The notes under the pieces are model-generated. The model worked only from the letters and a program-made list of their open reading frames with translations, made no database searches and was not told the DNA's origin. Shown here in pieces: positions 7,232-54,117 of a stretch of 64,000 nt of DNA (the stretch's first letter is position 1; every line of letters begins with the position of its first letter). Origin of the DNA: Dehalococcoidia bacterium (GTDB lineage Bacteria; Chloroflexota; Dehalococcoidia; Lucifugimonadales; UBA3495); contig CAXXON010000001.1 in assembly GCA_963667765.2 (NCBI GenBank), forward strand, positions 1,151,722 through 1,215,721. Direction: 5' to 3'. A program made the position numbers and the translations under genes.

Positions 7232-8715
7232 CGCACCAGAGCTCCTCCGGGCTGCACCACGATTTCCTTGACGAAAGACTCGATGAAGCCCCGCCGCTCG
7301 GTGAGTTCGCTCTCGTTCAGAAACTTGCTCAGGTCCTCACAATAAGCGGTGATGGTTTCCACATCGTCCAAGACGACCCGCCGCTGGGACAGTATCACCC
7401 TGGCCTCCGCCGCCGTGGCCTCAAGACACTCCTGTCGCTCCCGGTGGTCCTTGATGCGGGGCTTGAAGTCCTCGATGTCCAGGTCGGTGGTCTCCGCCAA
7501 GTTGTAGAGGCGCTCCAGCCGCCGCTTCACGTCAGCCAGTTCCGACTCGGCGGTCTCCAGCCGCTGGCGCTGCTCCCGGGCGATGCCGTCCATCTCCTCG
7601 TCCACCAGCTTGACAAGCTCCCGTATGTTGGACTCGGTGAGCACATTCTCCCGGATCTTGCCGACGACCATCTCCTCAAACCTGCGGGCGTTCAGTCTGG
7701 GACAGTCGCAAGCCCCGCTTCCCCGTTTCATCAATGACTGGCAGACGTAGTAGGCGAACTTGCCTCCCTTGGAGTCCTGGCCGGACATGGCCCGGCGGCA
7801 GGCGCGGCACTTGACCAGCCCGCTGAGCAGGTAGGAGCTGCCAACCCGGCGGGGATGGACCTTCCTGGGGGCGCGGGAACTCATCTGCTTGTTGACCTTG
7901 CGGAACTGCGTCTGGGTGACTACACCGGGGAACGCCTTCTCCACCCTGACCGGGTCGCCCTTGTCCCTCGCGCCTCCGCCCCAGAGCAAAGTGCCGGTGT
8001 AGGCCTCGTTTCTGAGGATGATATGGACGCCGTTCTTGGACCAGGGCCTGCCGGTGGGGTTGGCGATGCCCTCGCCGTTCAGGGTGCGGGTGATCTCCAG
8101 GATGCCTTTCCCCGACTCCGCCAGGTTGAAGATGCGCTGGACCACGGGAGCGGTGTCCGGGTCCGGTTCCAGGGTGGGCCGCTTTTTTCCCCCGTCCTGG
8201 ACCATCAGCTTGCGGTAGCCGTAAGGGACCCGGCTGGCGACCCAGAAGCCCCTTGAGGCGGCCTCGCGCATACCACGCCGAACTTCTTCGGCAAGATTTT
8301 CCGAGTAAAATTCGTCCACGGACTCTATGATGGCCTCCATCAGCTTGCCGGTGGGTGAGTCGTCGGCGTGCTCGGTGATGGAGACGACGCGGATTCCCTT
8401 GCGCCGGAGCATGGACTTGAAAGCCACGGCGTGCTCCCGCTTGCGGGTGAATCTGGAAAACTTCCAGACCAGAATTTCGCCAAAAGGCGATTCCGGCTTG
8501 CTGGCCTCGTCCAGCATCCTGCGGAACTGGGGCCGGTCGGCGATTCTACCGCTCTCGGCCTCGTCGACGTACTCGCGGGCGATGGAGTAGCCGTTGCGCT
8601 CGGCGTAGTCGCGCAGCGCCCGCAGCTGGGCGGCGACTGAGAGGTCCACGTCCTGGCGGTCGCTGGAGACCCGGGCGTAGAGAGCCGCCGGGGTCAACTC
8701 GGTATTCTTACTCAT
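6784..8715 (-). CDS. large serine recombinase (rec2); native C-terminus replaced by read-through antisense to rec1
   Basis: MSKNTELTPAALYARVSSDRQDVDLSVAAQLRAL plus recombinase, zinc-ribbon and coiled-coil regions. Family similarity ends at ...VLSTVKSGGPD (about 7125). The remaining ~113 codons down to 6784 run antisense through rec1. Confidence 0.85.
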   Translation of the reverse strand: MSKNTELTPAALYARVSSDRQDVDLSVAAQLRALRDYAERNGYSIAREYVDEAESGRIADRPQFRRMLDEASKPESPFGEILVWKFSRFTRKREHAVAFKSMLRRKGIRVVSITEHADDSPTGKLMEAIIESVDEFYSENLAEEVRRGMREAASRGFWVASRVPYGYRKLMVQDGGKKRPTLEPDPDTAPVVQRIFNLAESGKGILEITRTLNGEGIANPTGRPWSKNGVHIILRNEAYTGTLLWGGGARDKGDPVRVEKAFPGVVTQTQFRKVNKQMSSRAPRKVHPRRVGSSYLLSGLVKCRACRRAMSGQDSKGGKFAYYVCQSLMKRGSGACDCPRLNARRFEEMVVGKIRENVLTESNIRELVKLVDEEMDGIAREQRQRLETAESELADVKRRLERLYNLAETTDLDIEDFKPRIKDHRERQECLEATAAEARVILSQRRVVLDDVETITAYCEDLSKFLNESELTERRGFIESFVKEIVVQPGGALVRYTIPTPQDSPIGGKDAEEVYLDAPVLSTVKSGGPDWTKSRTEAASDVTPSWGMGIVYVRTASSATTSMPCTKLRMRAFRSGNVPSWNNSRKSATYPLISFDVGSSARRCSNWASAPSRAATSWSWRLFRDRMRGEITSMGNCLVSRAW

Positions 8716-8917
8716 TGCTGTGTCCTCCCTGATTATCTTCCCGTTCAGCTTGTCGGGGGCGCAGCGGTTCCAACCTTGCCTAGCGGCACAGTCCCCCGTC
8801 CTCCATGTATAGGCGCAGAGCCTCGGTCACCAACTCGCTCATGTCGCGGCCCTCTTCCTCCTTCGACCGCTGCACCTCCTCGAACATCTCCGGCGGAAGC
8901 GAAAAGGTAATAGTCAC
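8708..8917 (-). pseudogene. decayed RHH gene upstream of rec2
   Basis: Own translation: (GTG 8917)TITFSLPPEMFEEVQRSKEEEGRDMSELVTEALRLYMEDGGLCR, then an in-frame TAG (8780-8782), then ARLEPLRPRQAEREDNQGGHSNE*. The TAG aligns with a Gln codon of the intact copy at 53887-54117. The conserved upstream ATG (8928-8930) is out of frame by 1 nt. Confidence 0.7.
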
Positions 8918-8969
8918 AGATTACCAGCATGGCGGTATGGTCTCTCGTCTTGATTACTAGTATATTAGA

Positions 8970-21049: not shown

Positions 21050-21322
21050 TCAGCGACCTGGCGCTCCTCGCAATCGAGAGGTTGACCTTGAAGTGAGCGG
21101 TGGCTTTGCCCACTCGTCGATCATCCGGCGGAACTGGGGACGGTCGGCGATACGGCCGCTCTCGGCCTCGTCCACGTACTCGCGGGCAACGGAGTAGCCG
21201 TTGCGTTCGGCGTAGTCGCGCAGCGCCCGCAATTGGGCGTGTACGGACAGGTCAACGTCCTGGCGGTCGCTGGAGACCCGGGCGTAGAGGGCCGCCGGTG
21301 TCAAATCAGCATTCCTATTCAT
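21050..21322 (-). pseudogene. truncated large serine recombinase (rec4; N-terminal ~68 codons only)
   Basis: MNRNADLTPAALYARVSSDRQDVDLSVHAQLRALRDYAERNGYSVAREYVDEAESGRIADRPQFRRMIDE, then unrelated sequence and a stop. Confidence 0.8.
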
Positions 21323-21545
21323 CGCTGTGTCCTCCGTCTTCCTCTGACTGATGGGCCTGGCGGGAACGCCGCTGCATCCGCTCCTTGATCCGCCACTCCC
21401 GCTCCTCCATGTATAGGCGGATGACCTCCCTCAGCAACGCGCTCACGCTGCGGTTCTCCTCCCCCGCCACCTGCCGCAGGCCCTGGGCCATCTCCGGGTG
21501 CAGCGAGAAGGTGATGGTCTCGGTGTTCCTGGATAATATGGGGGC
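21315..21545 (-). pseudogene. RHH gene of the truncated rec4 module; no canonical start codon found
   Basis: Own translation ...TETITFSLHPEMAQGLRQVAGEENRSVSALLREVIRLYMEEREWRIKERMQRRSRQAHQSEEDGGHSDE*. The stop overlaps the rec4 ATG. The frame opens right after a TAG, with no ATG/GTG/TTG before the beta-strand. Confidence 0.5.
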
Positions 21546-39659: not shown

Positions 39660-42459
39660 GCTTCAATGGGGGCACCGCCTTTCGGCGATGGAAAGATGGT
39701 CGATTTCCCGCTGGCCCCAGGCTCCTGCTCCATGCTTCAATGGGGCCACCGCCTTTCGGCGATGGAAACGGGATGTCGGTGCAGCTGAACCGGCGTTTGA
39801 CGTCACGCTTCAATGGGGCCACCGCCTTTCGGCGATGGAAAGGTCCGCCGCCAGTCCCATGAAAACGTGGGCCTCGTCGATGCTTCAATGGGGCCACCGC
39901 CTTTCGGCGATGGAAAGCATGCCCATGCTGGCCGCCGCCATCGATGCCGACGCGCTTCAATGGGGCCACCGCCTTTCGGCGATGGAAAGCTTTCGACCGG
40001 GACGTGGAGGTGAACATCAACGGACAGCTTCAATGGGGCCACCGCCTTTCGGAGATGGAAACTTTCGACGATCGTTGCCAGCAGTACCTGGACCAAGAGC
40101 TTCAATGGGGCCACCGCCTTTCGGAGATGGAAACTTTCGACGATCGTTGCCAGCAGTACCTGGACCAAGAGCTTCAATGGGGCCACCGCCTTTCGGCGAT
40201 GGAAAGCTACTCACCCGCATAGGCTAGGAGGCCAGACGTGGAGCTTCAATGGGGCCACCGCCTTTCGGCGATGGAAAGTGCACAGCCTCATACCGGTGGT
40301 CCTCTCCCTGTTGACGCTTCAATGGGGCCACCGCCTTTCGGCGATGGAAAGCATCGCCGCGGGCGACTACCTCCGCGCCAAAAATGCCGAGCTTCAATGG
40401 GGCCACCGCCTTTCGGCGATGGAAAGGCCAGCGGCTGCAGATCCGGATGTCCGAGATCCGGGAGCTTCAATGGGGCCACCGCCTTTCGGCGATGGAAAGG
40501 TCTGCCCGGACCTCCAGCTCCTCATCGAGAGGAAGGCTTCAATGGGGCCACCGCCTTTCGGCGATGGAAAGCTTCCATAAAGCCGTTGGTGAGGGCCACG
40601 GAGATATTGCTTCAATGGGGCCACCGCCTTTCGGCGATGGAAATCCTGATAACCTGTCTGATGGCTTCCTGTGGAACGGTGCTTCAATGGGGCCACCGCC
40701 TTTCGGCGATGGAAAGCGTCTGGTAATGGCAGAAATGTCGGCGTCAGGAGTACCGCTTCAATGGGGCCACCGCCTTTCGGCGATGGAAACGGCGAGTATT
40801 CGGCTGACCATTGACTGCGACATCCCGCTTCAATGGGGCCACCGCCTTTCGGCGATGGAAAGCTCGCCGTCGCGGATCTCGCCTGTCTGGTCAACCTTGC
40901 TTCAATGGGGCCACCGCCTTTCGGCGATGGAAAGTTCCGGATCCGCCTCAGGGGTTGGAATGCGCCAGCCCTGCTTCAATGGGGCCACCGCCTTTCGGCG
41001 ATGGAAAGATGGCCAGGGTCATTCCATCGCCCTCCTCAAATTTGCTTCAATGGGGCCACCGCCTTTCGGCGATGGAAAGACGAATCCGAGCGCGCCCTTG
41101 ACTCGCCGATTCTCGCGGCTTCAATGGGGCCACCGCCTTTCGGCGATGGAAAGTCCCGAAAGTGGAGAGAATTGGGCCCTGCACACGTTGCTTCAATGGG
41201 GCCACCGCCTTTCGGCGATGGAAAGAACGGCCATCGACACAATATCGAGTGATCTTGGAGTAGCTTCAATGGGGCCACCGCCTTTCGGCGATGGAAAGTA
41301 CGTCAACGACCCGTGTGTGCCATTGGTCAAACCCGCTTCAATGGGGCCACCGCCTTTCGGCGATGGAAAGCAGCAGGCTCCGAGATCGACACCATCGAAC
41401 AACTGAGGCTTCAATGGGGCCACCGCCTTTCGGCGATGGAAAGTTCTCGACGGACTCGGCAAGCGTGTCGCTCTTGCGCGCTTCAATGGGGCCACCGCCT
41501 TTCGGCGATGGAAAGAGAATGAGCTGCAGGAGCAGCAGGTCCTGGACGGCGCTTCAATGGGGCCACCGCCTTTCGGCGATGGAAAGCGTCCAGTCGGACC
41601 CGGCCGGGAACGCAAAAATCTCGCTTCAATGGGGCCACCGCCTTTCGGCGATGGAAAGGGCGTGGGCCTCTCCGGAGATGACCCCGGTCTCCATGCTTCA
41701 ATGGGGCCACCGCCTTTCGGCGATGGAAAGAGTCTGGCTCTTGTGAGGTCAACTCTCAGGCGTTCGGGCTTCAATGGGGCCACCGCCTTTCGGCGATGGA
41801 AAGATTCATGCTTGCCACGGCCGCCGACGACCTGATGAGCCGGCTTCAATGGGGCCACCGCCTTTCGGCGATGGAAAGATGGATCATCCCCACGTTTCCG
41901 TCCATCGACCCGACGCTTCAATGGGGCCACCGCCTTTCGGCGATGGAAATACAGTACGCCACCATCGCAGCCCAGCGCATACCAGCGCTTCAATGGGGCC
42001 ACCGCCTTTCGGCGATGGAAAGACTGATGCAGCAACGTAGGTACCTGGACGTGAAACATGCTTCAATGGGGCCACCGCCTTTCGGCGATGGAAAACGGTT
42101 ATTTCCTGGTACTGCTGGAGCCACTTAAAATGCTTCAATGGGGCCACCGCCTTTCGGCGATGGAAACCGGTGAGGATTTTAGCCTGTCCTCGCAGCAGTC
42201 CGAGCTTCAATGGGGCCACCGCCTTTCGGCGATGGAAAGAGGAATATCGGACGGGGCGCGGCTCTGAAATACTGAGGCTTCAATGGGGCCACCGCCTTTC
42301 GGCGATGGAAAGGGTAACGTAATCGCCATCGTCAAAAGGCCGCAGTCGATGCTTCAATGGGGCCACCGCCTTTCGGCGATGGAAAGTTCGGCGGCTTCCA
42401 AGTCCCCAGCGTCGATGAATGCTTGCTTCAATGGGGCCACCGCCTTTCGGCGATGGAAA
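39660..42459 (-). CRISPR. CRISPR array, 39 repeats / 38 spacers; transcribed on the minus strand
   Basis: The 35-nt repeat on the minus strand is TTTCCATCGCCGAAAGGCGGTGGCCCCATTGAAGC. It ends in an ATTGAAGC handle and has a central CGCC-GAAA-GGCG hairpin. Spacers are about 36-39 nt. The far repeat (39660-39694) carries a C>G change at 39672, marking the trailer end. The leader side abuts cas2. Confidence 0.97.
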
Positions 42460-42653
42460 GGCTATTTGCAAACGCCTTCCGTCGCATCATTATGTTAAAG
42501 TGCGGATTTTCACAAGAAACGGTTAGCAATCCAGTGGGGCGCCCAAGGTGTCGCGGCTCTGTTCCTTCGACCGCTAGCTGGGAGGCTGCGAGCGGTTCAG
42601 CTTGGTAGCTGCACCCTCCTACCTCTCGCAGAGCGCGGTCTACCTGCGCTCCA
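42460..42653 (-). promoter_or_regulatory. CRISPR leader
   Basis: Non-coding interval between the cas2 stop and the first (newest) repeat. It is AT-richer next to the array (TTAACATAATGATGCGACGG on the minus strand). No promoter is mapped. Confidence 0.55.
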
Positions 42654-42944
42654 TCATACTACCACTGCCGCCCGGCGGGGCAAATCCCGGGCCTTTCCCA
42701 GAAAGGTCAAGCTCTTGGGGCCCCTGCCCTCCGAGGGTCCCAGGTCGACAATCAAGGCCCGGTCCTCCTTCAGGTTGAGGACTTCCGCAAGGGCCTCCTC
42801 CAGCAGCACCCTTTCCTTGGGAGAGAGGTCGCAGATGAACACGGAATATTGGGCTGGGTTACCAAACCCGTTCATCTTCCTGTATGTGCGGGCCAGCCGC
42901 TTGGAATCGGAGACGTCATAGCACACGAGAAAACGGTTGCGCAT
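42654..42944 (-). CDS. cas2: Cas2
   Basis: MRNRFLVCYDVSDSKRLARTYRKMNGFGNPAQYSVFICDLS is the canonical Cas2 N-terminus. 96 aa. Confidence 0.95.
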   Translation of the reverse strand: MRNRFLVCYDVSDSKRLARTYRKMNGFGNPAQYSVFICDLSPKERVLLEEALAEVLNLKEDRALIVDLGPSEGRGPKSLTFLGKARDLPRRAAVVV

Positions 42945-42946
42945 AT

Positions 42947-44704
42947 CTACCTCGTCCTGAATTCCGGATAGGATGTCAGTTCGCCGAGCAGGTGCCTGGA
43001 CAACAGACGAGCCTGCATTTCCAGCACGCGGCGATAGCTGACCGGGTAGCCGAACAGGGGGTGGGTGACCAGGGTGTCCATCCGGCGTTCGTAGGCCTCG
43101 ATGACCCTGCGGCGGCCGTTCTGGGTGAGGGCCGTTGCGTTTCCCCGGGTGATGAAGTGCTCCGGCCCCAGTTCCCCGTTGTTGATGAGGGTCAGGCAGA
43201 CCGAATCGGCAATCAGGGGACGGAACTCTTCCACCAGGTCCAGGGCCAGAGCTGGCCTGCCGTACCTGGGCTGGTGATAGAAGCCCAGATACGGGTCGAA
43301 GCCCACCGTGAGCGCCGTGATGGTCGCCTGTTTGATCAGCATCGCGTAGAGAAAGGAGAGGACGGCGTTCACCGGGTCCTTGGGAGGACGCCGGTTTCTC
43401 CCTCGAAAGTCGAAGTCCAGGGTCTCGTTCTTGACCATTCCGCTAAACTCGGAGAAGTAACTGCGCGCGGCGGCTCCTTCGATTCCCAGGAGAGTCTCCG
43501 GGGACGAGGCGAAGAGCGCCTTTTCCGCCAGGCGGTTGAGTTCCTGCAGGATGGCTGGCGGAGCCTCTCGGTGATTGCGGCGGAGCATGGTGCGGGAGTT
43601 TTTGATCTTGCCGAACACCATCCGGCGGGAGATGCGCAGGGCCGACTCCGGAGCCATCGCTGCCAGGTATTGCTGGCGGCGCAGTTCTATATTCTTGTGG
43701 CCCATGCCGCTGGTGATGCCCCGGAACCAGCCCCCGTAGCTGAAATGGCAGATGGGGATGTCCCGGTCGCACAGTTCCTGAAGCGCTTGGGCGGTGACTT
43801 GGACGTTGCCGAAGAGGGCCAGGTGGGAAATTTCCATCAGGCGGACCCTCTGGAGCACCTCTCCCTTCTGTTTAATCTCCAGCTGGCCGCCGGCTTTGCC
43901 GACGACCGCGCCCTGGGTCTGTACATAGACTGGGACGGTTTCGTCCCTGGCGGGGTACATTCGGCGAACGTCCTCCGGCTTTATAGACGGTCCATCAGGC
44001 GAGAGAAAGTTCACCTCGTCGGGGAGGCAGATGCCCGCCAGGGAGCACCTGGGGCACTTGGGACTGTCTACCAGGGGTTCTGGGATTCGCCCGGAGGCGG
44101 CCATGCCGCGAAGGCTGGTCAGCAGGTCCAGCGTGCGCGATACGAGGGCGTCGTCGAAGGGCACGGCCACCCGCTGGCGGGACTCCACGAAATAGAGCAT
44201 TCCCTGGGTGCAGGTGTAGCCGTTGGCACGGAGCAGCAAGCCTTGGATGCAGACCTGAACTCGCTCCGGCTCCCAGGCCCCCTCCGGGACGTCGGGAGCG
44301 GTGCCGTGCTTGTAGTCCACAGGGGTCGCCGCGTCGCCCTGGCCCTCGATGAGGTCGATGCGGGCGATGGCACCCAGAGAATCGTCGGAGATCAGCACTG
44401 AGCGAGCGTGTATGGGTTCCGGGGGCTCGCCGTCCTTCTCTTCCTCCGTGTCCGCAGCGTCGCTGCTAGATAGAGAGGGCAGCTTGCCGGAAGGGCGGTC
44501 AACCCTGCGGTGCTGGAATCTGCCCTCGACGGTGTCGACGCTGTCGGCGAATTCGCCCTGCACCCACTCCAGGTATGCCAGGCGGGGACAGTAGGCATAC
44601 TCGTTGAGCATCCGGGCGGGCACCAGTTCCGGCGCTGTACCGACGGATTGTCCGATTTCATGGTTGGCGGGCCCTTGCGCTGTCTCGACTCCTTCAATCG
44701 CCAT
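42947..44704 (-). CDS. cas4-cas1: Cas4-Cas1 fusion
   Basis: The N-terminal Cas4 part has YCPRLAYLEW, IDLIE...VDYK and CPRCSLAGIC. The C-terminal Cas1 part has NAVLSFLYAML and GFYHQPRYGRPALALDLVEEFRPLIAD. This fusion is typical of type I-G/I-U. Confidence 0.95.
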   Translation of the reverse strand: MAIEGVETAQGPANHEIGQSVGTAPELVPARMLNEYAYCPRLAYLEWVQGEFADSVDTVEGRFQHRRVDRPSGKLPSLSSSDAADTEEEKDGEPPEPIHARSVLISDDSLGAIARIDLIEGQGDAATPVDYKHGTAPDVPEGAWEPERVQVCIQGLLLRANGYTCTQGMLYFVESRQRVAVPFDDALVSRTLDLLTSLRGMAASGRIPEPLVDSPKCPRCSLAGICLPDEVNFLSPDGPSIKPEDVRRMYPARDETVPVYVQTQGAVVGKAGGQLEIKQKGEVLQRVRLMEISHLALFGNVQVTAQALQELCDRDIPICHFSYGGWFRGITSGMGHKNIELRRQQYLAAMAPESALRISRRMVFGKIKNSRTMLRRNHREAPPAILQELNRLAEKALFASSPETLLGIEGAAARSYFSEFSGMVKNETLDFDFRGRNRRPPKDPVNAVLSFLYAMLIKQATITALTVGFDPYLGFYHQPRYGRPALALDLVEEFRPLIADSVCLTLINNGELGPEHFITRGNATALTQNGRRRVIEAYERRMDTLVTHPLFGYPVSYRRVLEMQARLLSRHLLGELTSYPEFRTR

Positions 44705-44761
44705 AACATGCCTCTCTCTGCCTGGTCCGGCTGTTTTGGATCATGACCTGGCTGACATGGG

Positions 44762-45706
44762 TTAAACCGGAGTGGACGGGGTGAAGTTGCGGTAGCGGCC
44801 GTTGTTTATGCGCTGGGTCCTGAACACTTCCTGTATGCCCATGGCGGCCAGTCGGCGTCGGTTTGGGGCAGTTTCCTGCAGGACCCGCAGAGCCAGCAGG
44901 GAGCGGACCATATCCAGGTCTGCGGCGGGGTCCCAGACGGGCCAGGTAAAGAAGGCATCGCGGCTGCGATTTCCGGAGAACCCGGTGGTGATGGCCGTGC
45001 TGCGCACGGGCATTACCGGGAATAGGGGGAGTGCCTCAAAGGCCAGGCGGTTGGCGCCCCACTCGGTCCTGGGTTGCTCGCCCGACGCCGTCGGGTCGCG
45101 CCACCTGTGGGCATAGCGGCGGTCGTCCTCCGGGTCCCAGCGCAGCGACAGGCGGGAGTCGCCCCGTTTCCACGGAGCAAACAGACACTTACGGAGATGA
45201 TCCCGGGTGGTTTTCTGCGCAAGGTCGCGCATGGATCTGAGGAACTGTGTCTGTCCGGCTCCCAGAGTGCGGAAGGCAGTTTCCTGAGTCTGCCCCTTCC
45301 GGTCGGCGGACTGGGCGGAGTCGCAGCCGAAGGCCGCGATGAAATCCGCCGCTGCCCGTGATTCGGGGGCCGAGTCCGCAGCTTCCGCAGCGCTCAGTGC
45401 GTGGCCGCGGAACGCATCCGCGGGGACCGGAAGGTTGTCTCCGATTTCCAGGGCGTCATGCCCCGGTCGCATCCTCAAGAAACTCTCCAGCCCGTCCAGC
45501 GCCTGTTCCTCAGTGGGTTGGCCGCCGGCGGCGTGCAGCATGGGACGCCAGGTATCCCGCAGGGTCCAGGAGAGGCTGACCGGACGATCCGGCCAGGTCA
45601 GTGTGAGACCCCGGAGTACCCCCAGGGCCGCCAGGAAGGCCAGCGGGTTGGCCCCGTCCAGTCCTGGCATGAGCAGGCCGCCATGGGGATGTTCAAGTTC
45701 GGTCAT
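44762..45706 (-). CDS. csb3: type I-G/I-U associated protein Csb3
   Basis: The position between cas3 and cas4-cas1, the size (314 aa) and the N-terminus GLDGANPLAFLAALGVLR fit what I recall of Csb3. The family call should be confirmed by HMM. Confidence 0.6.
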   Translation of the reverse strand: MTELEHPHGGLLMPGLDGANPLAFLAALGVLRGLTLTWPDRPVSLSWTLRDTWRPMLHAAGGQPTEEQALDGLESFLRMRPGHDALEIGDNLPVPADAFRGHALSAAEAADSAPESRAAADFIAAFGCDSAQSADRKGQTQETAFRTLGAGQTQFLRSMRDLAQKTTRDHLRKCLFAPWKRGDSRLSLRWDPEDDRRYAHRWRDPTASGEQPRTEWGANRLAFEALPLFPVMPVRSTAITTGFSGNRSRDAFFTWPVWDPAADLDMVRSLLALRVLQETAPNRRRLAAMGIQEVFRTQRINNGRYRNFTPSTPV

Positions 45707-48700
45707 GCTCCCTCTCCTGACTGCTTGTCACGGGTTTTCTGCTCGTCTTCGCTGCAGCGGTGGTCGGCCAGACGCATCAGCGCCTCCAGCCAAGCGAGGC
45801 CCCACCACCCGTACCGGCGGACCAGCCGCCAGAAGCGTTCCGGCACGCCGCTGTCCAGCCGTTCGAGCCCGGTGGCGCTGCAGGCCGACATGTGATGGCC
45901 AAAGGTTGCGTGTTCCACGTGGACCGGTTCATCGTCCGACACCACCGGAGCGAAGGGGCGGCAGAACCCGTGGTGGCTGGCCACCAGGTGAAGCACCAGT
46001 TCTGGGTCGTGGGCCGACCGCAGCATACCGGGGACGCTCTCAATCAGCCGGACGGAGAGGAGCTCGTGTCGGCCTGCCACGGGATACCCGCTCTCCCGGC
46101 GGGCACGCCGTACTTCTCCCCGGCCGGTGGGCAGGGCGTCAGATTTTGCGAGGAGCAAACCGGCGGTCCGGGCCGTCCACGGATTGCCGCCGTAGAGCAT
46201 GGCCTGGAACCTGGGGTCTGATTTGCCCACATCGTGCAGACGGGCGGCAAGAGCCAGATCATCAGTCAGGAAAGCCGGGAGGCCGGCTCCCGCTGCGAAG
46301 TTCCTGGTCCACTCTTCAACGCCATGCAGGTGATCTTCCAAGGGCACCCGCACCGTGGCCGAATAGGAATCGTCCTCGCTGGTGGGAGTTGAGGCCGAGA
46401 CCAGGTACTGCTGTACACGGCGGGATCCCTGTAGCACGAAACCCGCACCGGTCTCCTCATCATCGCGACCGGGATAGGGAGTCACCCTGGGACGGCGACG
46501 GCTACCGTATTCCCCGGCCAGGGCGTGGGCTGCGTCCTTCAGCCACTGCCATTGGGGTGCGGCGTCAATTTCCGAAGCCAGCCTTTCGAAGGCTGCCGGG
46601 ATTTCCGACTCCAGTTCCTCCCAGTCCTCGGAGGAGGCCCGGGTCCGGGCAGCCTTTTCGAAGAACGTCCGCGCCGGCACTTCCGGCCATTGTGCCACCG
46701 TTCGGGAGTGGATGCGCAGGAGCGGTTTGGCCTTGGCCTGAAGGTGGGCTCGGTCCCCGAGGTCGATGACCGGCTCGCCGTTGTCGGGGCCTGGTGGTAT
46801 GTGCCCGAAGACCTCGAAGCCCCCCTGATCAGCGGGAATTACGACGGTATCGCCGGGGCGCAGGTCTCTGAGTTCCGTTTGACCGACGATAAGATAGCTC
46901 TCTTCCGGTCCGCGCCAGCACAGGACCTTGCGTCGGACCTGGCGGTCATTCCTCGGATCTCCTTCGGTGGGAGCAGGGTTGCCCTCCAGGTCGCTGTCGT
47001 CGACACTGGAGTTGATCCCGGATCCTTCGAACCAGCGACGAAGGACGTGAATGGGCGTCGCGATGCACTCCGAGGATACGGGCGGGCAGAGGCTCACGAC
47101 GTCGACCTGCCGGCCTTCGTTCATGTCTCCCTGTAGATCGGCCCGCCAGCAGACCTGCGCCTCCGGCGCGCCGCGGTGTGGGCCGTGCAGAAACAGGGAA
47201 ATTTCCGGATCAGGCGACGGTGCGGGCGAGGTCTGCACCCAGGCGTCGACGTGGGCCGGCAGCATCACTGGGGCGTCCGCCGCCCGCTGCCGCAGCCTGT
47301 CCAGCTCCTCCGGATCATCGGGAAGGGTCTCGTCCATGGCGGCGTATCCGAAGTCGAACCAGCCCCCATCGGCTCTCTCCTTGAGCCACTGCCACGTCTC
47401 CGCCAGGGCCGTGCCGTAAATTGGATCGTCACCCGTTCTGGTCTTGGGATCGGTCTGGTCAGCCCGAACGACGATTGTGGCCCGCGCTTCTACGTTGTCC
47501 CGCCCACCCCGGTTCAAGCGTCCGAAGCGTTGCCGCAGGGCGTCGAGACTGGCGCACTCGGTGACCAGGCCGTCGAAGTCCAGGTCTGCGCCAACCTCCA
47601 GGCACTGTGTGGCGACGACGAAACGTGGAAGTCCATTCCCTGGGTCCGGTTCTGCCGGATGGCCCTTCGCGGGCTGCGACACCACCTTCTGCCGGGATCC
47701 GGTCTTCAGGGACTCGAGATGCCGTACAGTGTCGTCCCGGTCAAGTGCCCTCATCCGTCCGGTGAGCAGGATGGCGTCCTGTCCGGCAGCGGCCAACCGT
47801 TTATGGACCAGGCGCGCCGTGGCAACCCTGTTGACCATTATCCCTATGGCCCGGCGCTGGTCATTCACCAGCTTTACGGCTTCCTCCGCGATCCGCACAG
47901 ACAGGTGCTGCAGTACGTCATCGCCTCTGGTGTCCCCGGCAACGACCAGGCTGGTCGGCTTGGCAGCCTTTATGCGGAGGCCCAGGACCGGGTGGTTGTA
48001 GTCTTCGGCCGCGGCGGTGAAGGTTCCACTGACGCCCGGTGGGGGGGTGGCTGACACCAGTGTCAGGTGGAAGGGAACGCTGCCGGGCTGTAGAGCCCAA
48101 CTGCGATACCGCTGCACTGCGGTCACAGTCTGGCGGAAGGGATTGGCGCAGTGGGCTTCGTCCAGGAATACCAGTGCATCGTTGGCGGCAAGCCCGGCAT
48201 GTACGGGCCGCATGCCAGTGCTGGTCCCGTAGCCGCGGAACAACAGCCTGGAGGCGAACTGGTCAACCGTGGTGACAACCACGGTGGGCTGAAGGGGCGA
48301 CCGGGCCCAGGCGTCATCGCGGTACATCCCGCCGCGGAGTTGAAAGCACGCCAGTGGAGGCTCGTCGGGGCTGGGATCCCCGGCCAGCAGCCGCAGCCGG
48401 CCAGCCACCTCCTCCAGGATTCCGCCCTGGGCTTGATGCAATTGACGCGCCAGTTCCCGGGACCGCTCGAAGGTGGCATCGACTATCACGCGGCGGTCCA
48501 CCACGAAGAATATGCGGCGGGGAGCTGTGCGATCAGCCGGGAGAAGGTCAGCCTGGCAGGCCAGGGCGAAGACCGCCATGTCAATGCAGGCGGTCTTGCC
48601 GGCTGACGTGGGCAGCGCCAGTGCCTCCGGCCAGGGGGCGACGCCCCCTCGAGCATCTGCGACCCGGCGGGCCAGCCGTTCCTGCCAGGGGAATGGTCCA

Positions 48701-48756
48701 TATCCGTATAGGGCCTGGAAGAAATCGGCAAACTGTCCTGAAGTCAACTCGCTCAT
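45703..48756 (-). CDS. cas3: Cas3 helicase with C-terminal HD nuclease domain (type I-G architecture)
   Basis: Motif I LPTSAGKTA, motif II VFLDEAH, and a C-terminal HD region HLHGVEEW...AARLHDVGKSDPRFQ. ATG 48756 (MSELTSGQF) overlaps the csb2 TAA by 1 nt. An upstream alternative start lies at 48777. Confidence 0.93.
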   Translation of the reverse strand: MSELTSGQFADFFQALYGYGPFPWQERLARRVADARGGVAPWPEALALPTSAGKTACIDMAVFALACQADLLPADRTAPRRIFFVVDRRVIVDATFERSRELARQLHQAQGGILEEVAGRLRLLAGDPSPDEPPLACFQLRGGMYRDDAWARSPLQPTVVVTTVDQFASRLLFRGYGTSTGMRPVHAGLAANDALVFLDEAHCANPFRQTVTAVQRYRSWALQPGSVPFHLTLVSATPPPGVSGTFTAAAEDYNHPVLGLRIKAAKPTSLVVAGDTRGDDVLQHLSVRIAEEAVKLVNDQRRAIGIMVNRVATARLVHKRLAAAGQDAILLTGRMRALDRDDTVRHLESLKTGSRQKVVSQPAKGHPAEPDPGNGLPRFVVATQCLEVGADLDFDGLVTECASLDALRQRFGRLNRGGRDNVEARATIVVRADQTDPKTRTGDDPIYGTALAETWQWLKERADGGWFDFGYAAMDETLPDDPEELDRLRQRAADAPVMLPAHVDAWVQTSPAPSPDPEISLFLHGPHRGAPEAQVCWRADLQGDMNEGRQVDVVSLCPPVSSECIATPIHVLRRWFEGSGINSSVDDSDLEGNPAPTEGDPRNDRQVRRKVLCWRGPEESYLIVGQTELRDLRPGDTVVIPADQGGFEVFGHIPPGPDNGEPVIDLGDRAHLQAKAKPLLRIHSRTVAQWPEVPARTFFEKAARTRASSEDWEELESEIPAAFERLASEIDAAPQWQWLKDAAHALAGEYGSRRRPRVTPYPGRDDEETGAGFVLQGSRRVQQYLVSASTPTSEDDSYSATVRVPLEDHLHGVEEWTRNFAAGAGLPAFLTDDLALAARLHDVGKSDPRFQAMLYGGNPWTARTAGLLLAKSDALPTGRGEVRRARRESGYPVAGRHELLSVRLIESVPGMLRSAHDPELVLHLVASHHGFCRPFAPVVSDDEPVHVEHATFGHHMSACSATGLERLDSGVPERFWRLVRRYGWWGLAWLEALMRLADHRCSEDEQKTRDKQSGEGA

Positions 48757-50215
48757 TACGGGTAGCCCCCTTCCCACCGGAGTGGCCGAAACATCCCATA
48801 GCCCCGGTAACGGCCAGCCCCCAGGATGACCGGGCCGGCCACCGGCTCGGCGAAGGTGACCACCGCATGCAGATGCTGCAGCCGTCCGTTGTCGGGCTTG
48901 CGGCGTATGCAGGGGAACGACCGGCTGTGGGGAACGCCCAGATGCAGGCTCACCTGACTGAGCATCACGTCCAGGGGGCGTGGCAGGCCAATCCTATCGC
49001 AGGCTTCCTCCACCATTCGGACTGCCTTGCCCTCTTGGTCGGGGGCCTTGGGATGGCGGTCGAAGGCGATGGGGGTAACCGTGGCCCACCTGCGGGCGGG
49101 GCCAGTCCATGTCCGGGCCTGCAGGGCGGCCGTTGGCGAGTGCCCCTCATCCATCTGCAGACGCCAGTCGAAGTTGGCTCCGTCGTAGACATGGACCTGG
49201 CGTGGGGATCCGTCTGTTTCTAAGCCCAGGACCGGGTTGAGGCACCGACCCACTTCGGCCTGCTCAACGTGCCTCGGTACGGCCAGGGCGAAGCCAAGCA
49301 GGTGGCCGTCGGCGTGTTGACTGCCGACAAAAGGTAGGGGCAGATAGGCGAGATGGGGCATCTGGGAGGGCCAACCGTCCCCGGTATGGCCACTGACCCA
49401 TTCCGGGACCGGTTCGGGGCAGTGCTTGACCACCGCGTTGCGCAATTTCTCGCCGAGCATCAATGTGCTTTCCAGGCCCATCCTCCTTCCCTGTACCCGT
49501 CTCAGCGCCAGCAGGCGTTCGTGAAAGACGCCGTGAGGCGTCGGCGGCGGGTTTTCCGGTTGTGGCGGCGAGTAGGCGACCCACCGTGATCGCTCGGGTC
49601 TACGATTGCTCTGGTGCTGGGCCGTCAGGTGATCCAGCCGGCCGGGACCGGATACCCGCAGCGGACGCTGGGCCACTCCTTCATCCGGTACCAGGTCGGG
49701 CTGGGGTGGGGCGTCTTCCACCCAGGCCTGGACCAGAGAAGCCGAGTGCCCCACCCGGATTACCTTGCTGCAGAGGGACTCCAGTCCACTCCGAACCCCG
49801 GACGGAGGGTCGGATGGCCAAGCCAGGTACACCGTGGGGTCCCGAGGAATGGCCACCGGAAACTGCCGGGCCTGCCGGGAGCGGTTCTCAGGAAGAAGTT
49901 GCAGTCCGGCGCGAACCTGCTGAGCCGAAGGTGTCCTGCCTGCCCTGCGATTGAGGGTGGGAGAGTCATTGACCGGAACGTAAGTGGTCACCGTCTCTCG
50001 TCGCGTTGCTTCGCTGGCGTGGATACTGGGAGCTCCCTCCTGTTCCAGCCACAGTAAAGCCTCCATTTCCGTGTCGTCGCCATTGGTCTCGAAATGGGCG
50101 TCGGCCAGTGCCATGAAGATGCGGTCCGGATGGGGCGGCCACTCGGGGCGGTTCCGGTCGGCGGAGTCGGTGGCCATTGACCACCCGGTAAGGTAGCGTA
50201 TGCCGATGGCAATCA

Positions 50216-50216
<1 letters not shown>
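48756..50216 (-). CDS. csb2: Csb2 (Cas5/Cas6-like fusion of type I-G)
   Basis: MIAIGIRYLTGWSMAT...RPEWPPHPDRIFMALADAH is the characteristic Csb2/GSU0054-family N-terminus. Confidence 0.8.
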
Positions 50217-51412
<1,196 letters not shown>

Positions 51413-51452
51413 GGCGTCAATCCTCCATTTGTTAGAATCGGTTTCGGCAGCA

Positions 51453-51629
51453 TCAGGCTGTGCGGGTGTGTGGCAGTAATCTAGGACGAACGCCGCCCGT
51501 TCTCAGGAATTTGACATGGGCTATGAGGGCGTCCAGATCCGTGCAGGACATCCGACCGGAAGCAGCGGCTTTCAGCAACAGTTCGTCGGCGACATCGTTC
51601 GTGGGAGGATGGGGAGGGGGCGGGTTCAT
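51453..51629 (-). CDS. possible 58-aa ORF between the predicted promoter and csb1
   Basis: Own translation MNPPPPHPPTNDVADELLLKAAASGRMSCTDLDALIAHVKFLRTGGVRPRLLPHTRTA*. The RBS is weak and there is no homolog in memory. It may simply be 5'-UTR. Confidence 0.2.
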   Translation of the reverse strand: MNPPPPHPPTNDVADELLLKAAASGRMSCTDLDALIAHVKFLRTGGVRPRLLPHTRTA

Positions 51630-51705
51630 TGTTCAACTTCTTGCTACCCATTGCTACCCAACAAATCTACAAGTATTATAATAAATTCCTATGAACTGAT
51701 TTCAA

Positions 51706-51733
51706 TCTATATGATACCCACGACTCATGTCAA
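51706..51733 (-). promoter_or_regulatory. predicted sigma70-type promoter facing the cas operon
   Basis: The minus strand reads TTGACA (51733-51728), then 16 nt, then TATAGA (51711-51706). It lies in the AT-rich gap upstream of csb1. Not experimentally supported. Confidence 0.4.
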
Positions 51734-51772
51734 CCTCGCTGTAGTACTATATGCCTCAATGTCGTCTTAGCA

Positions 51773-51867
51773 TTTCCGCTGCGGCCCAATTGAAGGATAG
51801 GCATTTAGTATTAGACGCACAGTTCCTAGTGCGTTTCCATCGCCGAAAGGCGGTGGCCCCATTGGCG
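51773..51867 (+). CRISPR. one-spacer mini-array (degenerate repeat - 37-nt spacer - near-perfect repeat), divergent from the cas operon
   Basis: psi-R1 is TTTCCGCTGCGGCCCAATTGAAGG (51773-51796). It keeps the 5' TTTCC and 12/14 of the 3' end, including the handle ATTGAAGG. The repeat copy at 51834-51864 is identical to the array repeat over 31 nt and then diverges (GCGA instead of AAGC). Both read in repeat orientation on the plus strand. Confidence 0.75.
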
Positions 51868-52149
51868 ATCAGTCTCAGAGCACACCTTGCCTTGGAAAGG
51901 CGCTCGACAAAAATATTCCTGCTCGCTCCGCTTTGGCAGCGGTGCCGGCGCACTTGGGGATTCTGTTTAGTGGCCCTAAAATTCGCGGGGCACACCCGCA
52001 TTCCCCACGGTAAAGGCGTTCATTGGGATTTCGGTGAATTTCGCCACTTCTTTGCCATGATCACACATTGTGTTCGGGGTTAGGCCGAGAAGAAAATCTC
52101 GGAAATGGGAACCTCATCGTCATTCTTCTCGCGCCCGATTAGCTCCGCT

Positions 52150-52314
52150 GGTAAATGTAGGCTTATGCCATATGCTGGGACTGAGGTGGAGTTCATTATT
52201 CGGACAGGCTGGGAGGCTGGATTGCGCAAGGTCGAGTTTACCTTGATCATTAAACGACCTCACAACCCCATCCACATCTCAAATACGGTACTGCCTACCG
52301 TCAAGTCAGGCCCA
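52150..52314 (+). pseudogene. possible 3'-terminal remnant of a plus-strand LSR gene abutting rec3
   Basis: The plus-strand frame reads ...RKVEFTLIIKRPHNPIHISNTVLPTVKSGPP, which resembles the ...YTIP....VLSTVKSGGP end of rec2. GTCAAGTCAGGCCCACCA matches rec1 7121-7138 in 17 of 18 nt, in the same orientation. Confidence 0.3.
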
Positions 52315-53894
52315 CCACCATGTCCAATACTGCGAACTCCGCCATTCAAGGCGATTTCGGCGGCGTCCGCTCCCCCTATGGGACTATCTTCCGGCGTGGG
52401 GATCGTATAGACAATCGTCGCTCCGCCGGGCCTCACCAGCACCTCCTTGACGAATGACCGCACGAAGGCTTTGGTCTCGGTCAGTTCGCTGGTCTTGAGG
52501 AACTCGCTCATGTCCTGGGCGAAGGCTGCGATGATGTCGGCGCTATCCAGCAGTTCCCGACGCTGGGACAGGACGGCCCGGGCTTCCTCGGCGGCGGCTT
52601 CCAGCTGCTCCCGGCGGTGGCGGTGCTCCAGGATGCGTTCCGAGGCGTCGGCCATGTCCAGGTCGGTGCTCTCCACGAAATGCCAGATGCGGTCCAGCTT
52701 CCGCTTGACCTCTTCCAGCTCGGCCTCGATGGTCTCCAGGTGTTGCCGCTGTTCACGGGCCAGCCCGTCCATCTCCTCGTCCACCAGCCTAACTAAGTCG
52801 CGGACGCTGGACTCGGTGAGGATATTGTCCCGGAGGTTGGAGACGATGATCTCCTCGAAGTTCCTGGCGTTGAGCCTGGGGGTGTCGCAGGTCCCGCTGC
52901 CCTGCTTGAGCAGGGACTGGCAGACGTAGTAGGTGTACTTCCCGCTCTTGGCTTCGGATGCGGTAAGGGCCTTGCCGCAAGTCTCGCACCTGGCCAGGCC
53001 GCTGAGCAGGTAGGGGCTGGCGGCGCGGCGGGGGTGGGTGACCTTGGGCGCCCTGGCTTCCAGCAGCTTCCTGACCCGCTGGAACTCCTGCTGGGAGACA
53101 ATGGCGGGGAAGGCGTTCTCCACCCGCACCGGCTCCTGTCCGTCCCTTGCCTTCTGACCCCAGACCAAAGTGCCGGTGTAGGCTTCGTTGGTGAGGAGCT
53201 TGTGGACGGTGGTCTTGCGCCACTGCTTGCCGTTGGGGGAGGGAATGCCCTCGCTGTTCAGGGTCTTGAGGATGTCCAGGGAGGTCTTGCCCTGTAGGGT
53301 CAGGTCGAAGATGCGGCGGACCACGGCGTCGTGGGGCGGGTTGAGTTCCAGGCGGGGGCGCTTCTTGGCCCCGTCCTGGACATAGACCCGCTGGTAGCCG
53401 TAAGGGGCGCTGGCGTTCATCCAGAAGCCCCGGGAGGCGGCCTCGCGCATCCCCCGCGTCACCTCTTGCGCAAGATTCTCCGAGTAAAATTCGTCCACGG
53501 ACTCGATGATGGCCTCCATGAGCTTGCCGGTGGGGGTGTCGTCGGCGTGCTCGGTGATGGAGACGACGCGAATGCCTTTCTTGCGGAGCATGGACTTGAA
53601 GGCCACGGCGTGCTCCCGCTTGCGGGTGAACCTCGAAAACTTCCAGACCAAGATTTCCTGGAAGGGAGAGTCGGGCTTGGATGCCTCGTCCAGCATCTTA
53701 CGGAACTGGGGCCTATCGGCGATCCTGCCACTCTCGGCCTCGTCGATGTACTCGCGGACGACCAGGTAGCCGTTCTTCTCGGCGTAGTCCCTGAGCGCCC
53801 GGAGCTGGGCGGCCACGGAGAGGTCCACGTCCTGCCGGTCGCTGGACACCCGGGCGTACAAAGCCACCGGGGCCAGGTCGGTGTTCTTACTCAT
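52260..53894 (-). CDS. large serine recombinase (rec3)
   Basis: MSKNTDLAPVALYARVSSDRQDVDLSVAAQLRAL plus recombinase, zinc-ribbon (CETCGK...YYVCQS...GTC) and coiled-coil regions. ATG 53894 overlaps the RHH stop (ATGAGTAA). Confidence 0.92.
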   Translation of the reverse strand: MSKNTDLAPVALYARVSSDRQDVDLSVAAQLRALRDYAEKNGYLVVREYIDEAESGRIADRPQFRKMLDEASKPDSPFQEILVWKFSRFTRKREHAVAFKSMLRKKGIRVVSITEHADDTPTGKLMEAIIESVDEFYSENLAQEVTRGMREAASRGFWMNASAPYGYQRVYVQDGAKKRPRLELNPPHDAVVRRIFDLTLQGKTSLDILKTLNSEGIPSPNGKQWRKTTVHKLLTNEAYTGTLVWGQKARDGQEPVRVENAFPAIVSQQEFQRVRKLLEARAPKVTHPRRAASPYLLSGLARCETCGKALTASEAKSGKYTYYVCQSLLKQGSGTCDTPRLNARNFEEIIVSNLRDNILTESSVRDLVRLVDEEMDGLAREQRQHLETIEAELEEVKRKLDRIWHFVESTDLDMADASERILEHRHRREQLEAAAEEARAVLSQRRELLDSADIIAAFAQDMSEFLKTSELTETKAFVRSFVKEVLVRPGGATIVYTIPTPEDSPIGGADAAEIALNGGVRSIGHGGGPDLTVGSTVFEMWMGL

Positions 53895-54117
53895 CGCTGT
53901 GTCCTCCTTGATCATCTTCCCGGTCAGCCCGTCGGGAGCGCAGCCTTTCCAGGCGTTGCTCACGGCGCAGTTCTCTTTCTTCCATGTACAGGCGGAGGGC
54001 TTCCCGCACCAACTCGCTCATGTCGCGGCCCTCCTCGTCCTTCACGCGCTGCACCTGGTCGAACATCTCCGGGGGCAGGGAGAAGGTGATGGTCCTGGAT
54101 TTCCGGCGTGGGGGCAT
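53887..54117 (-). CDS. ribbon-helix-helix protein coupled to rec3
   Basis: MPPRRKSRTITFSLPPEMFDQVQRVKDEEGRDMSELVREALRLYMEERELRREQ... This is the intact reference copy of the RHH family. Confidence 0.8.
   Translation of the reverse strand: MPPRRKSRTITFSLPPEMFDQVQRVKDEEGRDMSELVREALRLYMEERELRREQRLERLRSRRADREDDQGGHSDE

Follow-up and report, generated by a model that had tools for sequence, protein, structure and literature searches.

The DNA analyzed here, a 64-kb window, contains a complete type I-G CRISPR-Cas locus with all cas genes on the minus strand. The operon spans 42654-51412 and comprises csb1/cas7g (50216-51412), the cas5-cas6 fusion csb2 (48756-50216), cas3g (45703-48777), a gene for a 314-aa NF049934 protein of the "Cas3-extension family" (44762-45706), a cas4g/cas1g fusion (42947-44704), and cas2 (42654-42944), all identified through NCBIfam matches above curated cut-offs. 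The type I-G signature genes (TIGR02570, TIGR02165, TIGR02621, and NF049935) are all among these matches. Together with the adjoining array, they indicate that the locus belongs to type I-G, as a first-pass annotation of this stretch had assumed. No Csx17/Cas8g ORF is present at the locus, and the NF049934 protein is found there instead. The CRISPR array, at 39660-42460 and transcribed on the minus strand, has 39 repeats and 38 spacers. Its repeat, in the orientation of the cas genes, is CTTTCCATCGCCGAAAGGCGGTGGCCCCATTGAAGC, and the mini-array described below imitates this repeat.

In type I-G systems, Csb2 cleaves 4 nt 3' of the repeat hairpin, which leaves an 8-nt 5' handle on the crRNA (PMC9638904). 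The crRNA has a 5+1 periodicity, with every sixth base flipped out, and this six-base rule is a structural signature of type I Cascade (PMC9638904). The complex has no Cas5 subunit holding the handle; Csb2 remains on the 3' hairpin, and the reported PAM is TTN (PMC9638904). A Bifidobacterium Csb3-type I-G system has TAT, not TTN, as its PAM (PMC12915315). The first-pass annotation had suggested deriving the PAM from protospacers of the array spacers. That route yielded nothing: 961 array spacers, from the window and all comparison loci, had no protospacer in the 1.6 Mb of DNA fetched, and 3 leader-proximal spacers of the window had no match in viral_contigs.

Outside the array, about 360 nt upstream of csb1 and divergent from the cas operon, a mini-array lies on the plus strand (51773-51869). 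It is a degenerate one-spacer CRISPR adjoining the type I-G operon, and its anatomy is that of the CreR elements known from other subtypes. The degenerate first repeat (psiR1, 51773-51796; TTTCCGCTGCGGCCCAATTGAAGG) keeps the 4-nt linker CCCA followed by the 8-nt handle ATTGAAGG (51789-51796), which is identical to the array handle ATTGAAGC at 7 of 8 positions. Next comes a 37-nt spacer-like guide (psiS, 51797-51833; ATAGGCATTTAGTATTAGACGCACAGTTCCTAGTGCG) and then a near-intact repeat (R2, 51834-51869), in which 31 of 36 nt are those of the array repeat (51834-51864). R2 keeps the hairpin CCATCGCC-GAAA-GGCGGTGG and, with it, the position at which Csb2 cleaves. The final 4 nt of its handle have diverged (GCGA vs AAGC in the array repeat), and a like pattern is seen in relatives. 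All three parts, including the diverged end of the repeat copy, are in the sequence as the first-pass annotation had described them. About 35 related elements show the same asymmetry, psiR1 retaining the handle and R2 the hairpin with its cleavage site.

Within psiS, the complementarity to the predicted target described below sits in positions 1-18 (51797-51814), and positions 20-37 (51816-51833) could form a small hairpin, CGCAC-N8-GTGCG. What is left of the psiR1 hairpin in the window is a 3-bp remnant (CCG-CTG-CGG) that does not rise above shuffles, which leaves Csb2 processing on the 5' side in doubt. Of 35 related psiR1 sequences, 18 have a stem of 5 bp or more, 14 of them 4 nt before the handle. 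We considered a psiR1 hairpin as a conserved processing signal and set it aside, since the stem is significant in some loci and not in the window. Rfam gave no match in the 64-kb window or in the region 51400-52300.

To locate a target, psiS positions 1-18 were scanned over both strands of the window. The best non-self match lies on the minus strand at 51692-51675 (ATAGGAATTTATTATAAT) and pairs at 14 of 18 positions, with mismatches at 6, 12, 16, and 18. Positions 19 and 20 (51674-51673) pair as well, and the complementarity ends there. The match is flanked by 5'-TTC-3' (51695-51693, minus strand), a PAM of the TTN type. No other site in the window has the PAM, the seed, and 13 or more matches out of 18 together. 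The pattern TTN-ATAGGNATTTANTAT likewise occurs once, vs 0.00 expected by chance, and the shuffle p for the match between psiS and this site is about 0.0005.

This site lies next to a predicted cas promoter on the minus strand (P1, 51706-51733) with the arrangement TTGACA (51733-51728)-16 nt-TATAGA (51711-51706). The first-pass annotation had named the same promoter, which is present at 51733-51706 and gains support from its conservation in relatives; a promoter scan tool reports it as TTGACA-18-TAGATT. Upstream regions of 18 related loci with the window's layout (class A, below) were read by eye. Most of them have a TTGAC(A/T)-like -35 element followed 16-18 nt on by a -10-like hexamer, located 0-17 nt upstream of the PAM, so P1 is probably the true cas promoter (Pcas). 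Because the PAM starts 10 bp downstream of the P1 -10 box, the predicted target would cover roughly +5 to +25 and thus, probably, the transcription start. The scan also found a second promoter-like site, P2 (TTGAAA-16-TATTAT; 51678-51705, minus strand), and the target extends over its spacer and -10 box. P2 is not conserved, being absent from the close relatives L081 and L083.

Relatives were used to ask whether guide and target change together. Csb1 has thousands of relatives, and the closest named genomes are Dehalococcoidia MAGs. The comparison set consisted of 80 genome loci, 80 metagenome loci, and six contigs of close relatives. The first-pass annotation had asked for the same mini-array in related I-G loci, and it was found there. 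All six Dehalococcoidia loci with csb1 as the first gene of the operon have this divergent mini-array, and in these six the best psiS match is TTN-flanked, about 90-140 nt upstream of the spacer start, and on the csb1 coding strand. In L081, whose Csb1 is 91% identical, psiS is the same as in the window and the target matches at 17 of 18 positions, with the sole mismatch at position 12; the window's own match (14/18) is weaker than this one. In L083, psiS begins ATAGGCTTTTT and the target reads TTC-ATAGGCTTTT, and in L002, L164, L165, and L167, psiS begins ATAGGGGTATCC and the targets begin ATAGG(N)GTA. At positions 7-9, guide and target read ATT/ATT in the window and L081, GTA/GTA in L002, L164, L165, and L167, and TTT/TTT in L083. 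Close relatives thus carry compensatory changes, and psiS and its predicted target co-vary.

The fair control for this pairing is a cross-locus comparison of 14 loci using TTN-flanked sites. On average, 13.3 of 18 positions matched between a psiS and the upstream region of its own locus, vs 8.6 for the regions of other loci, and in 12 of the 14 loci no other region matched as well as the own one. Counting over 38 pairs gave 82% paired positions, vs 46% for shuffled and no more than 43% for slid controls, and a covariation score of 0.885 vs 0.207, although targets in this set had been chosen as best matches and the pairing is there partly by construction.

The search was extended to all loci by looking for ATTGAAG handles outside arrays and then for a spacer with a partial match nearby. 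This gave about 37 credible I-G mini-arrays from Dehalococcoidia, Caldilineaceae, Nitrospira, Latescibacterota, Acidobacteriota, Gammaproteobacteria, and metagenomes. They fall into two layouts. In class A, to which the window belongs, the target lies 60-175 nt upstream of where the spacer starts and on the opposite strand. In class B, the element is oriented as csb1 and the target is on the same strand, 90-340 nt upstream, apart from one element (L019) whose target is 124 nt downstream.

Many of the 37 examples were first chosen with a TT filter, a bias that was addressed with an unconstrained re-scan and with a subset of 13 elements. In the re-scan (±600 nt, both strands, no PAM requirement), the best psiS match was TTN-flanked in 34 of 37 elements, and the third base of these TTN flanks was C in 10, T in 10, A in 10, and G in 4. 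Among the 13 elements found without a PAM criterion, 12 have the TT flank (local TT frequency 0.063; binomial P about 5e-14).

Mismatches in 35 pairs are unevenly distributed. The share of pairs with a mismatch is 66% at position 6, 80% at position 12, and 63% at position 18, close to the 75% expected of an unconstrained base. Positions 3, 9, and 15 are mismatched in 26%, 31%, and 37%. The remaining positions within 1-12 are mismatched in about 4%, and positions 1, 2, 5, and 7 in none of the 35. A weaker three-base periodicity was reportedly observed by Jung and colleagues for binding by I-E Cascade. A coding origin of the 3-nt periodicity was also considered, since one pair shares the peptide MAIVG between guide and target; it was rejected because other pairs have stops or non-synonymous changes. 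With its PAM, its paired seed, its mismatches at 6, 12, and 18, and its co-variation with psiS, the site at 51692-51675 is a credible target.

The breadth of these elements bears on whether the mini-array could be a dead remnant, the decayed end of a former second array upstream of csb1, with matches due to chance or shared ancestry. Full arrays do lie upstream of csb1 in three loci and a two-spacer intermediate in another, psiR1 is degenerate, and array decay is a plausible origin of mini-arrays. Decay would not, however, keep a handle and an R2 hairpin across phyla, nor place a PAM-flanked, seed-matched promoter site in about 37 loci. It would also not confine mismatches to positions 6, 12, and 18 (and 3, 9, and 15), nor make psiS and a site roughly 100 nt from it change in compensating ways. 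We regard a dead remnant as very unlikely; the comparative evidence for purifying selection on the mini-array is already strong.

The first-pass annotation had proposed a different target, an inverted match between psiS and a site upstream of the -35 element. That match (AGGCATTTAGTATTAGA vs AGGCATATAGTACTACA) is real, pairs at 14 of 17 positions, and is the only such match in the window, but its coordinates are 51740-51756 (minus strand), one base off from the proposed 51741-51757. Whole-window shuffles give an expectation of 0.01, although in this locally AT-rich region the match is somewhat more likely to arise by chance than that. Numbered along the spacer, its mismatches are at positions 9 and 15, as had been stated, and also at 18, and not at 6 or 12. 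If this site were the operator, Cascade carrying the mini-array RNA would repress Pcas or the mini-array's own promoter from there. In addition to the uniqueness of the match, L081, with the same psiS, has a counterpart at 13 of 17, and moving the register by two bases would put a TTG directly beside the matched part.

Other observations speak against 51740-51756 as an operator. In the register set by the 8-nt handle, the flank is CAT rather than TTN and positions 1 and 2 are unpaired; in none of the 35 natural pairs are these two positions mismatched. Three unrelated places in the window also reach 13/18 in this register. Nor is there co-variation of the site with psiS: GTAGTA(C/T)(T/G)AT is kept in L083, L002, L164, L165, and L167 though psiS has changed, and the best psiS match to this upstream motif in these loci is only 10-11 of 17, in other registers. 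The site was therefore ruled out as the Cascade target on its CAT flank, its unpaired positions 1-2, and its lack of co-variation, and we consider it highly improbable that repression acts there. The co-variation looked for was found at 51692-51675. The conserved motif that the site overlaps (GTAGTACTATAT, plus strand, 51741-51752) is more likely the -10 element (TACTAT/TATGAT) of a candidate creR promoter within about 51720-51760, although a consistent creR promoter motif was looked for across class A loci and not found.

The same inverted repeat could instead act as an RNA or DNA structure, as the first-pass annotation had also raised, with 51740-51756 pairing with psiS in the precursor so that a hairpin around psiR1 controls processing or stability. 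Its arms are complementary at 14 of 17 positions and 42 nt apart. An RNA fold of 51755-51935, however, gave local hairpins only and overall was no better than shuffles (z = -1.4). The 51740-51756 arm probably lies upstream of or within the creR promoter, with its conserved TACTAT/TATGAT, and so may not be transcribed, and it shows no co-variation with psiS. A structural role of this kind seems extremely unlikely.

The first gene downstream of the predicted regulated promoter is a 58-aa ORF (51453-51629, minus strand). The ORF and its ribosome-binding site are conserved in 12 Dehalococcoidia I-G loci, and the protein is predicted to form two helices. It had no Pfam match and no PDB sequence match, and only three relatives were found in databases; its AlphaFold model, with a pLDDT of 63, is too low in confidence for a fold search. 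Its position invites an explanation by CreTA-type addiction, in which the mini-array RNA would be a CreA antitoxin and the ORF a toxin freed when Cascade is lost or inhibited. CreTA modules lie inside cas loci and use the same RNA logic (PMC9458426), and in all 12 close Dehalococcoidia mini-array loci the repressed promoter's first gene would be this small ORF. The ORF is absent, though, from other I-G loci that have both element and target (e.g., L008, L023, L027, L065, and L074), so the RNA circuit is independent of it. It also appears to be co-transcribed with csb1, so derepression would raise Cas proteins and the supposed toxin together. The protein has no toxin-like features, its N-terminal proline run is not conserved, and it lacks any family or structure match. 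An addiction module built on this ORF is quite unlikely, in our judgment.

The reading we consider likely is that the mini-array is a creR-type gene, encoding a crRNA-like RNA through which the adjacent type I-G system represses itself. The class of function proposed in the first-pass annotation, CreR/CreA-like self-regulation, is strongly supported by the comparative evidence, although with a target other than the one it had proposed. Beside the complementarity, PAM, position, and co-evolution observed, we infer the following course of expression, processing, binding, and repression. Transcription of the plus strand would start from the candidate creR promoter. Csb2 would cleave at R2, and the 5' end would be set at psiR1 with the handle ATTGAAGG, giving an RNA of roughly 73 nt. 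This RNA would be loaded into a Cascade of seven Csb1 subunits, Csb2, and the large subunit. The complex would then read the TTC PAM and pair with the template strand of the cas operon through spacer positions 1-5, 7-11, 13-15, 17, and 19-20. Since pairing would end after about 20 of 37 nt, the R-loop would be incomplete, Cas3 would not be licensed, and no cutting would follow.

By analogy with CreR in types I-B, I-E, and V-A, the promoter would thus be blocked without cleavage. A complex held just downstream of P1 would block the 58-aa ORF, csb1, csb2, cas3, and the rest of the operon. The arrangement would provide negative feedback. The promoter would open whenever Cascade ran short, was titrated by crRNAs, or was inhibited by an anti-CRISPR protein.

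CreR logic has been shown experimentally for types I-B, I-E, and V-A (Liu et al., bioRxiv 10.1101/2023.03.10.532045). As in those systems, the element described here is a degenerate mini-CRISPR adjoining the effector genes. It keeps the 5' handle in psiR1 and the 3' handle or hairpin in the second repeat (bioRxiv 10.1101/2023.03.10.532045), and it has partial, PAM-proximal complementarity (10-20 nt) to a PAM-flanked site in or beside the cas promoter. No cleavage is expected and autorepression is predicted. It differs from CreR of I-B, I-E, and V-A in belonging to subtype I-G, in which no Cas5 subunit holds the handle and the 3' hairpin remains bound by Csb2, and in the almost perfect R2 of the window. 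The complementarity in I-G is also longer, up to 18-20 nt, and broken at 6, 12, and 18 and often at 3, 9, and 15, whereas Salmonella I-E CreR has 15 consecutive nt.

The element also shares its RNA architecture, and Cascade-mediated repression through a partial match as its predicted mode, with CreA of CreTA modules (Haloarcula hispanica I-B and others). The gene that CreA represses, creT, is a dedicated toxin gene, whereas the predicted I-G target promoter drives the cas operon itself, and the only candidate toxin in the window, the 58-aa ORF, is missing from most I-G loci with the element. The mini-arrays of Shmakov et al. (bioRxiv 10.1101/2023.03.03.530964) are similar in having two repeats, a location between cas genes, a seed beside one repeat, a canonical PAM, and a target in the promoter of the first effector gene, and a mismatch at position 6 was noted there. 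[quoted passage not shown] Their main text covers I-B, I-D, I-E, and I-F1 cases and does not mention I-G/I-U (bioRxiv 10.1101/2023.03.03.530964). Like tracr-L (II-A) and scaRNA (Francisella II-B), the predicted RNA would be a natural guide-like RNA whose partial complementarity turns an effector into a repressor of its own or a host promoter; tracr-L and scaRNA differ in their class 2 single-protein effectors, RNA scaffold, and PAM logic.

CreR-type elements are thus already known, including one mention without analysis for this subtype: Figure S7 of the CreR paper includes manually identified creA-like elements for I-U, as I-G was formerly called (Liu et al., bioRxiv 10.1101/2023.03.10.532045). 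Our literature search found no paper linking I-G with CreR or crRNA-like regulatory RNAs. What we take to be new is the predicted target site, the breadth of the elements across phyla, and a putative natural tolerance map for binding by I-G Cascade. A joint reading goes further. The natural pairs may together map the binding needs of I-G Cascade, with positions 6, 12, and 18 free, 3, 9, and 15 half-free, and the rest essential. The interrupted 18-20-nt match may have been selected to hold Cascade without licensing Cas3. The Dehalococcoidia circuit may in addition control the 58-aa protein, as a Cascade accessory, a regulator, or a CreT-like toxin, in a combined autoregulation and addiction module. 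This joint reading is speculative, and we think it unlikely to hold.

Among type I subtypes, I-G is to our knowledge the least studied, and we know of nothing on how its expression is controlled. It is also under development for genome engineering. The approximately 37 natural guide-target pairs amount to a free "mutational scan" and suggest how I-G guides might be designed to bind without cutting (CRISPRi). If the reading of the mini-array as a creR-type gene is true, many I-G systems, in at least six phyla, would throttle their own promoter with a built-in guide RNA, which would affect the cost of these systems, their risk of autoimmunity, and their response to anti-CRISPRs.

Mismatches between psiS, the 37-nt spacer-like guide of the mini-array, and its target were tallied over 35 psiS-target pairs, drawn from the window and from the related type I-G loci, numbered L001-L167. 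Beyond positions 6, 12 and 18, mismatches were enriched at psiS positions 3, 9 and 15 (26-37%), while their share elsewhere in positions 1-12 was about 4%. Several pairs are mismatched at every third base. This pattern suggests a 3-nt component in the binding requirements of type I-G Cascade.

The 3' half of psiS, which does not pair with the target, tends to fold into a small hairpin whose end coincides exactly with the boundary to R2, the downstream repeat. In the window, this hairpin is CGCAC-N8-GTGCG (51816-51833, plus strand), and such hairpins also occur in L001, L002, L035, L074, L079, L083, L119 and L144. The mean folding energy was -4.2 kcal/mol, compared to -3.3 kcal/mol for 947 array spacers (p = 0.02), despite a lower GC content. 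The hairpin could act by restricting how far the R-loop grows, or it could influence the loading of Cas7. Directly 3' of R2 lies GCCTTGGAAAGGCGCTCGACAA (window 51870-51900), which three of four close relatives conserve; in L081 and L002 it is found at the same relative position. A short hairpin without a T-run is possible within it, and the transcript of creR, the gene for the proposed crRNA-like RNA, may end in this region.

Between the predicted regulated promoter and csb1, the first gene of the cas operon, is a 58-aa ORF (51453-51629, minus strand) with a ribosome-binding site. Its occurrence was limited to 12 I-G loci of Dehalococcoidia, at the same position in every one, with the conserved core D..VD.LLL.AA.SGRIS..DLDALIAYV..LR. 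Its product is predicted to form two helices, and searches of Pfam and PDB gave no family or structure match. The window's operon has no gene for a Csx17/Cas8g-like large subunit. A 314-aa protein encoded after cas3 (44762-45706, minus strand), whose sole match is NCBIfam NF049934 ('Cas3-extension family'), may be the large-subunit equivalent of a Csb3-type I-G variant. In the CRISPR array, two neighboring repeat-spacer units (40026-40169; spacers 40063-40098 and 40135-40170) are identical and represent a tandem duplication.

About 400 nt past the mini-array is a gene for a large serine recombinase (52260-53963, minus strand), overlapped by the third of three paralogous segments that are 73-85% identical (7979-8925, 21113-21529 and 53158-54104). 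Mobile DNA may thus adjoin or even enclose the CRISPR locus.

Possible evolutionary intermediates include a mini-array with two spacers and a third, decayed repeat (L003, 9450-9640), full arrays upstream of csb1 in L005, L052 and L080, and one psiS lineage (L002, L164, L165 and L167) in which the degenerate first repeat, psiR1, has a partial internal duplication (GGCCCCATTGGCTACGGCCCCATTGAAGG).

A second layout was seen in L016, L021, L031, L042, L064 (9858-9990, as an example), L077, L091, L092, L096, L097, L101, L102 and L110. Here, the mini-array is directly upstream of csb1 in the same orientation, and the TTN-flanked target is on the same strand, 90-280 nt upstream of the mini-array. In these loci, the regulatory RNA may be excised from the 5' leader of the very cas mRNA that it represses.
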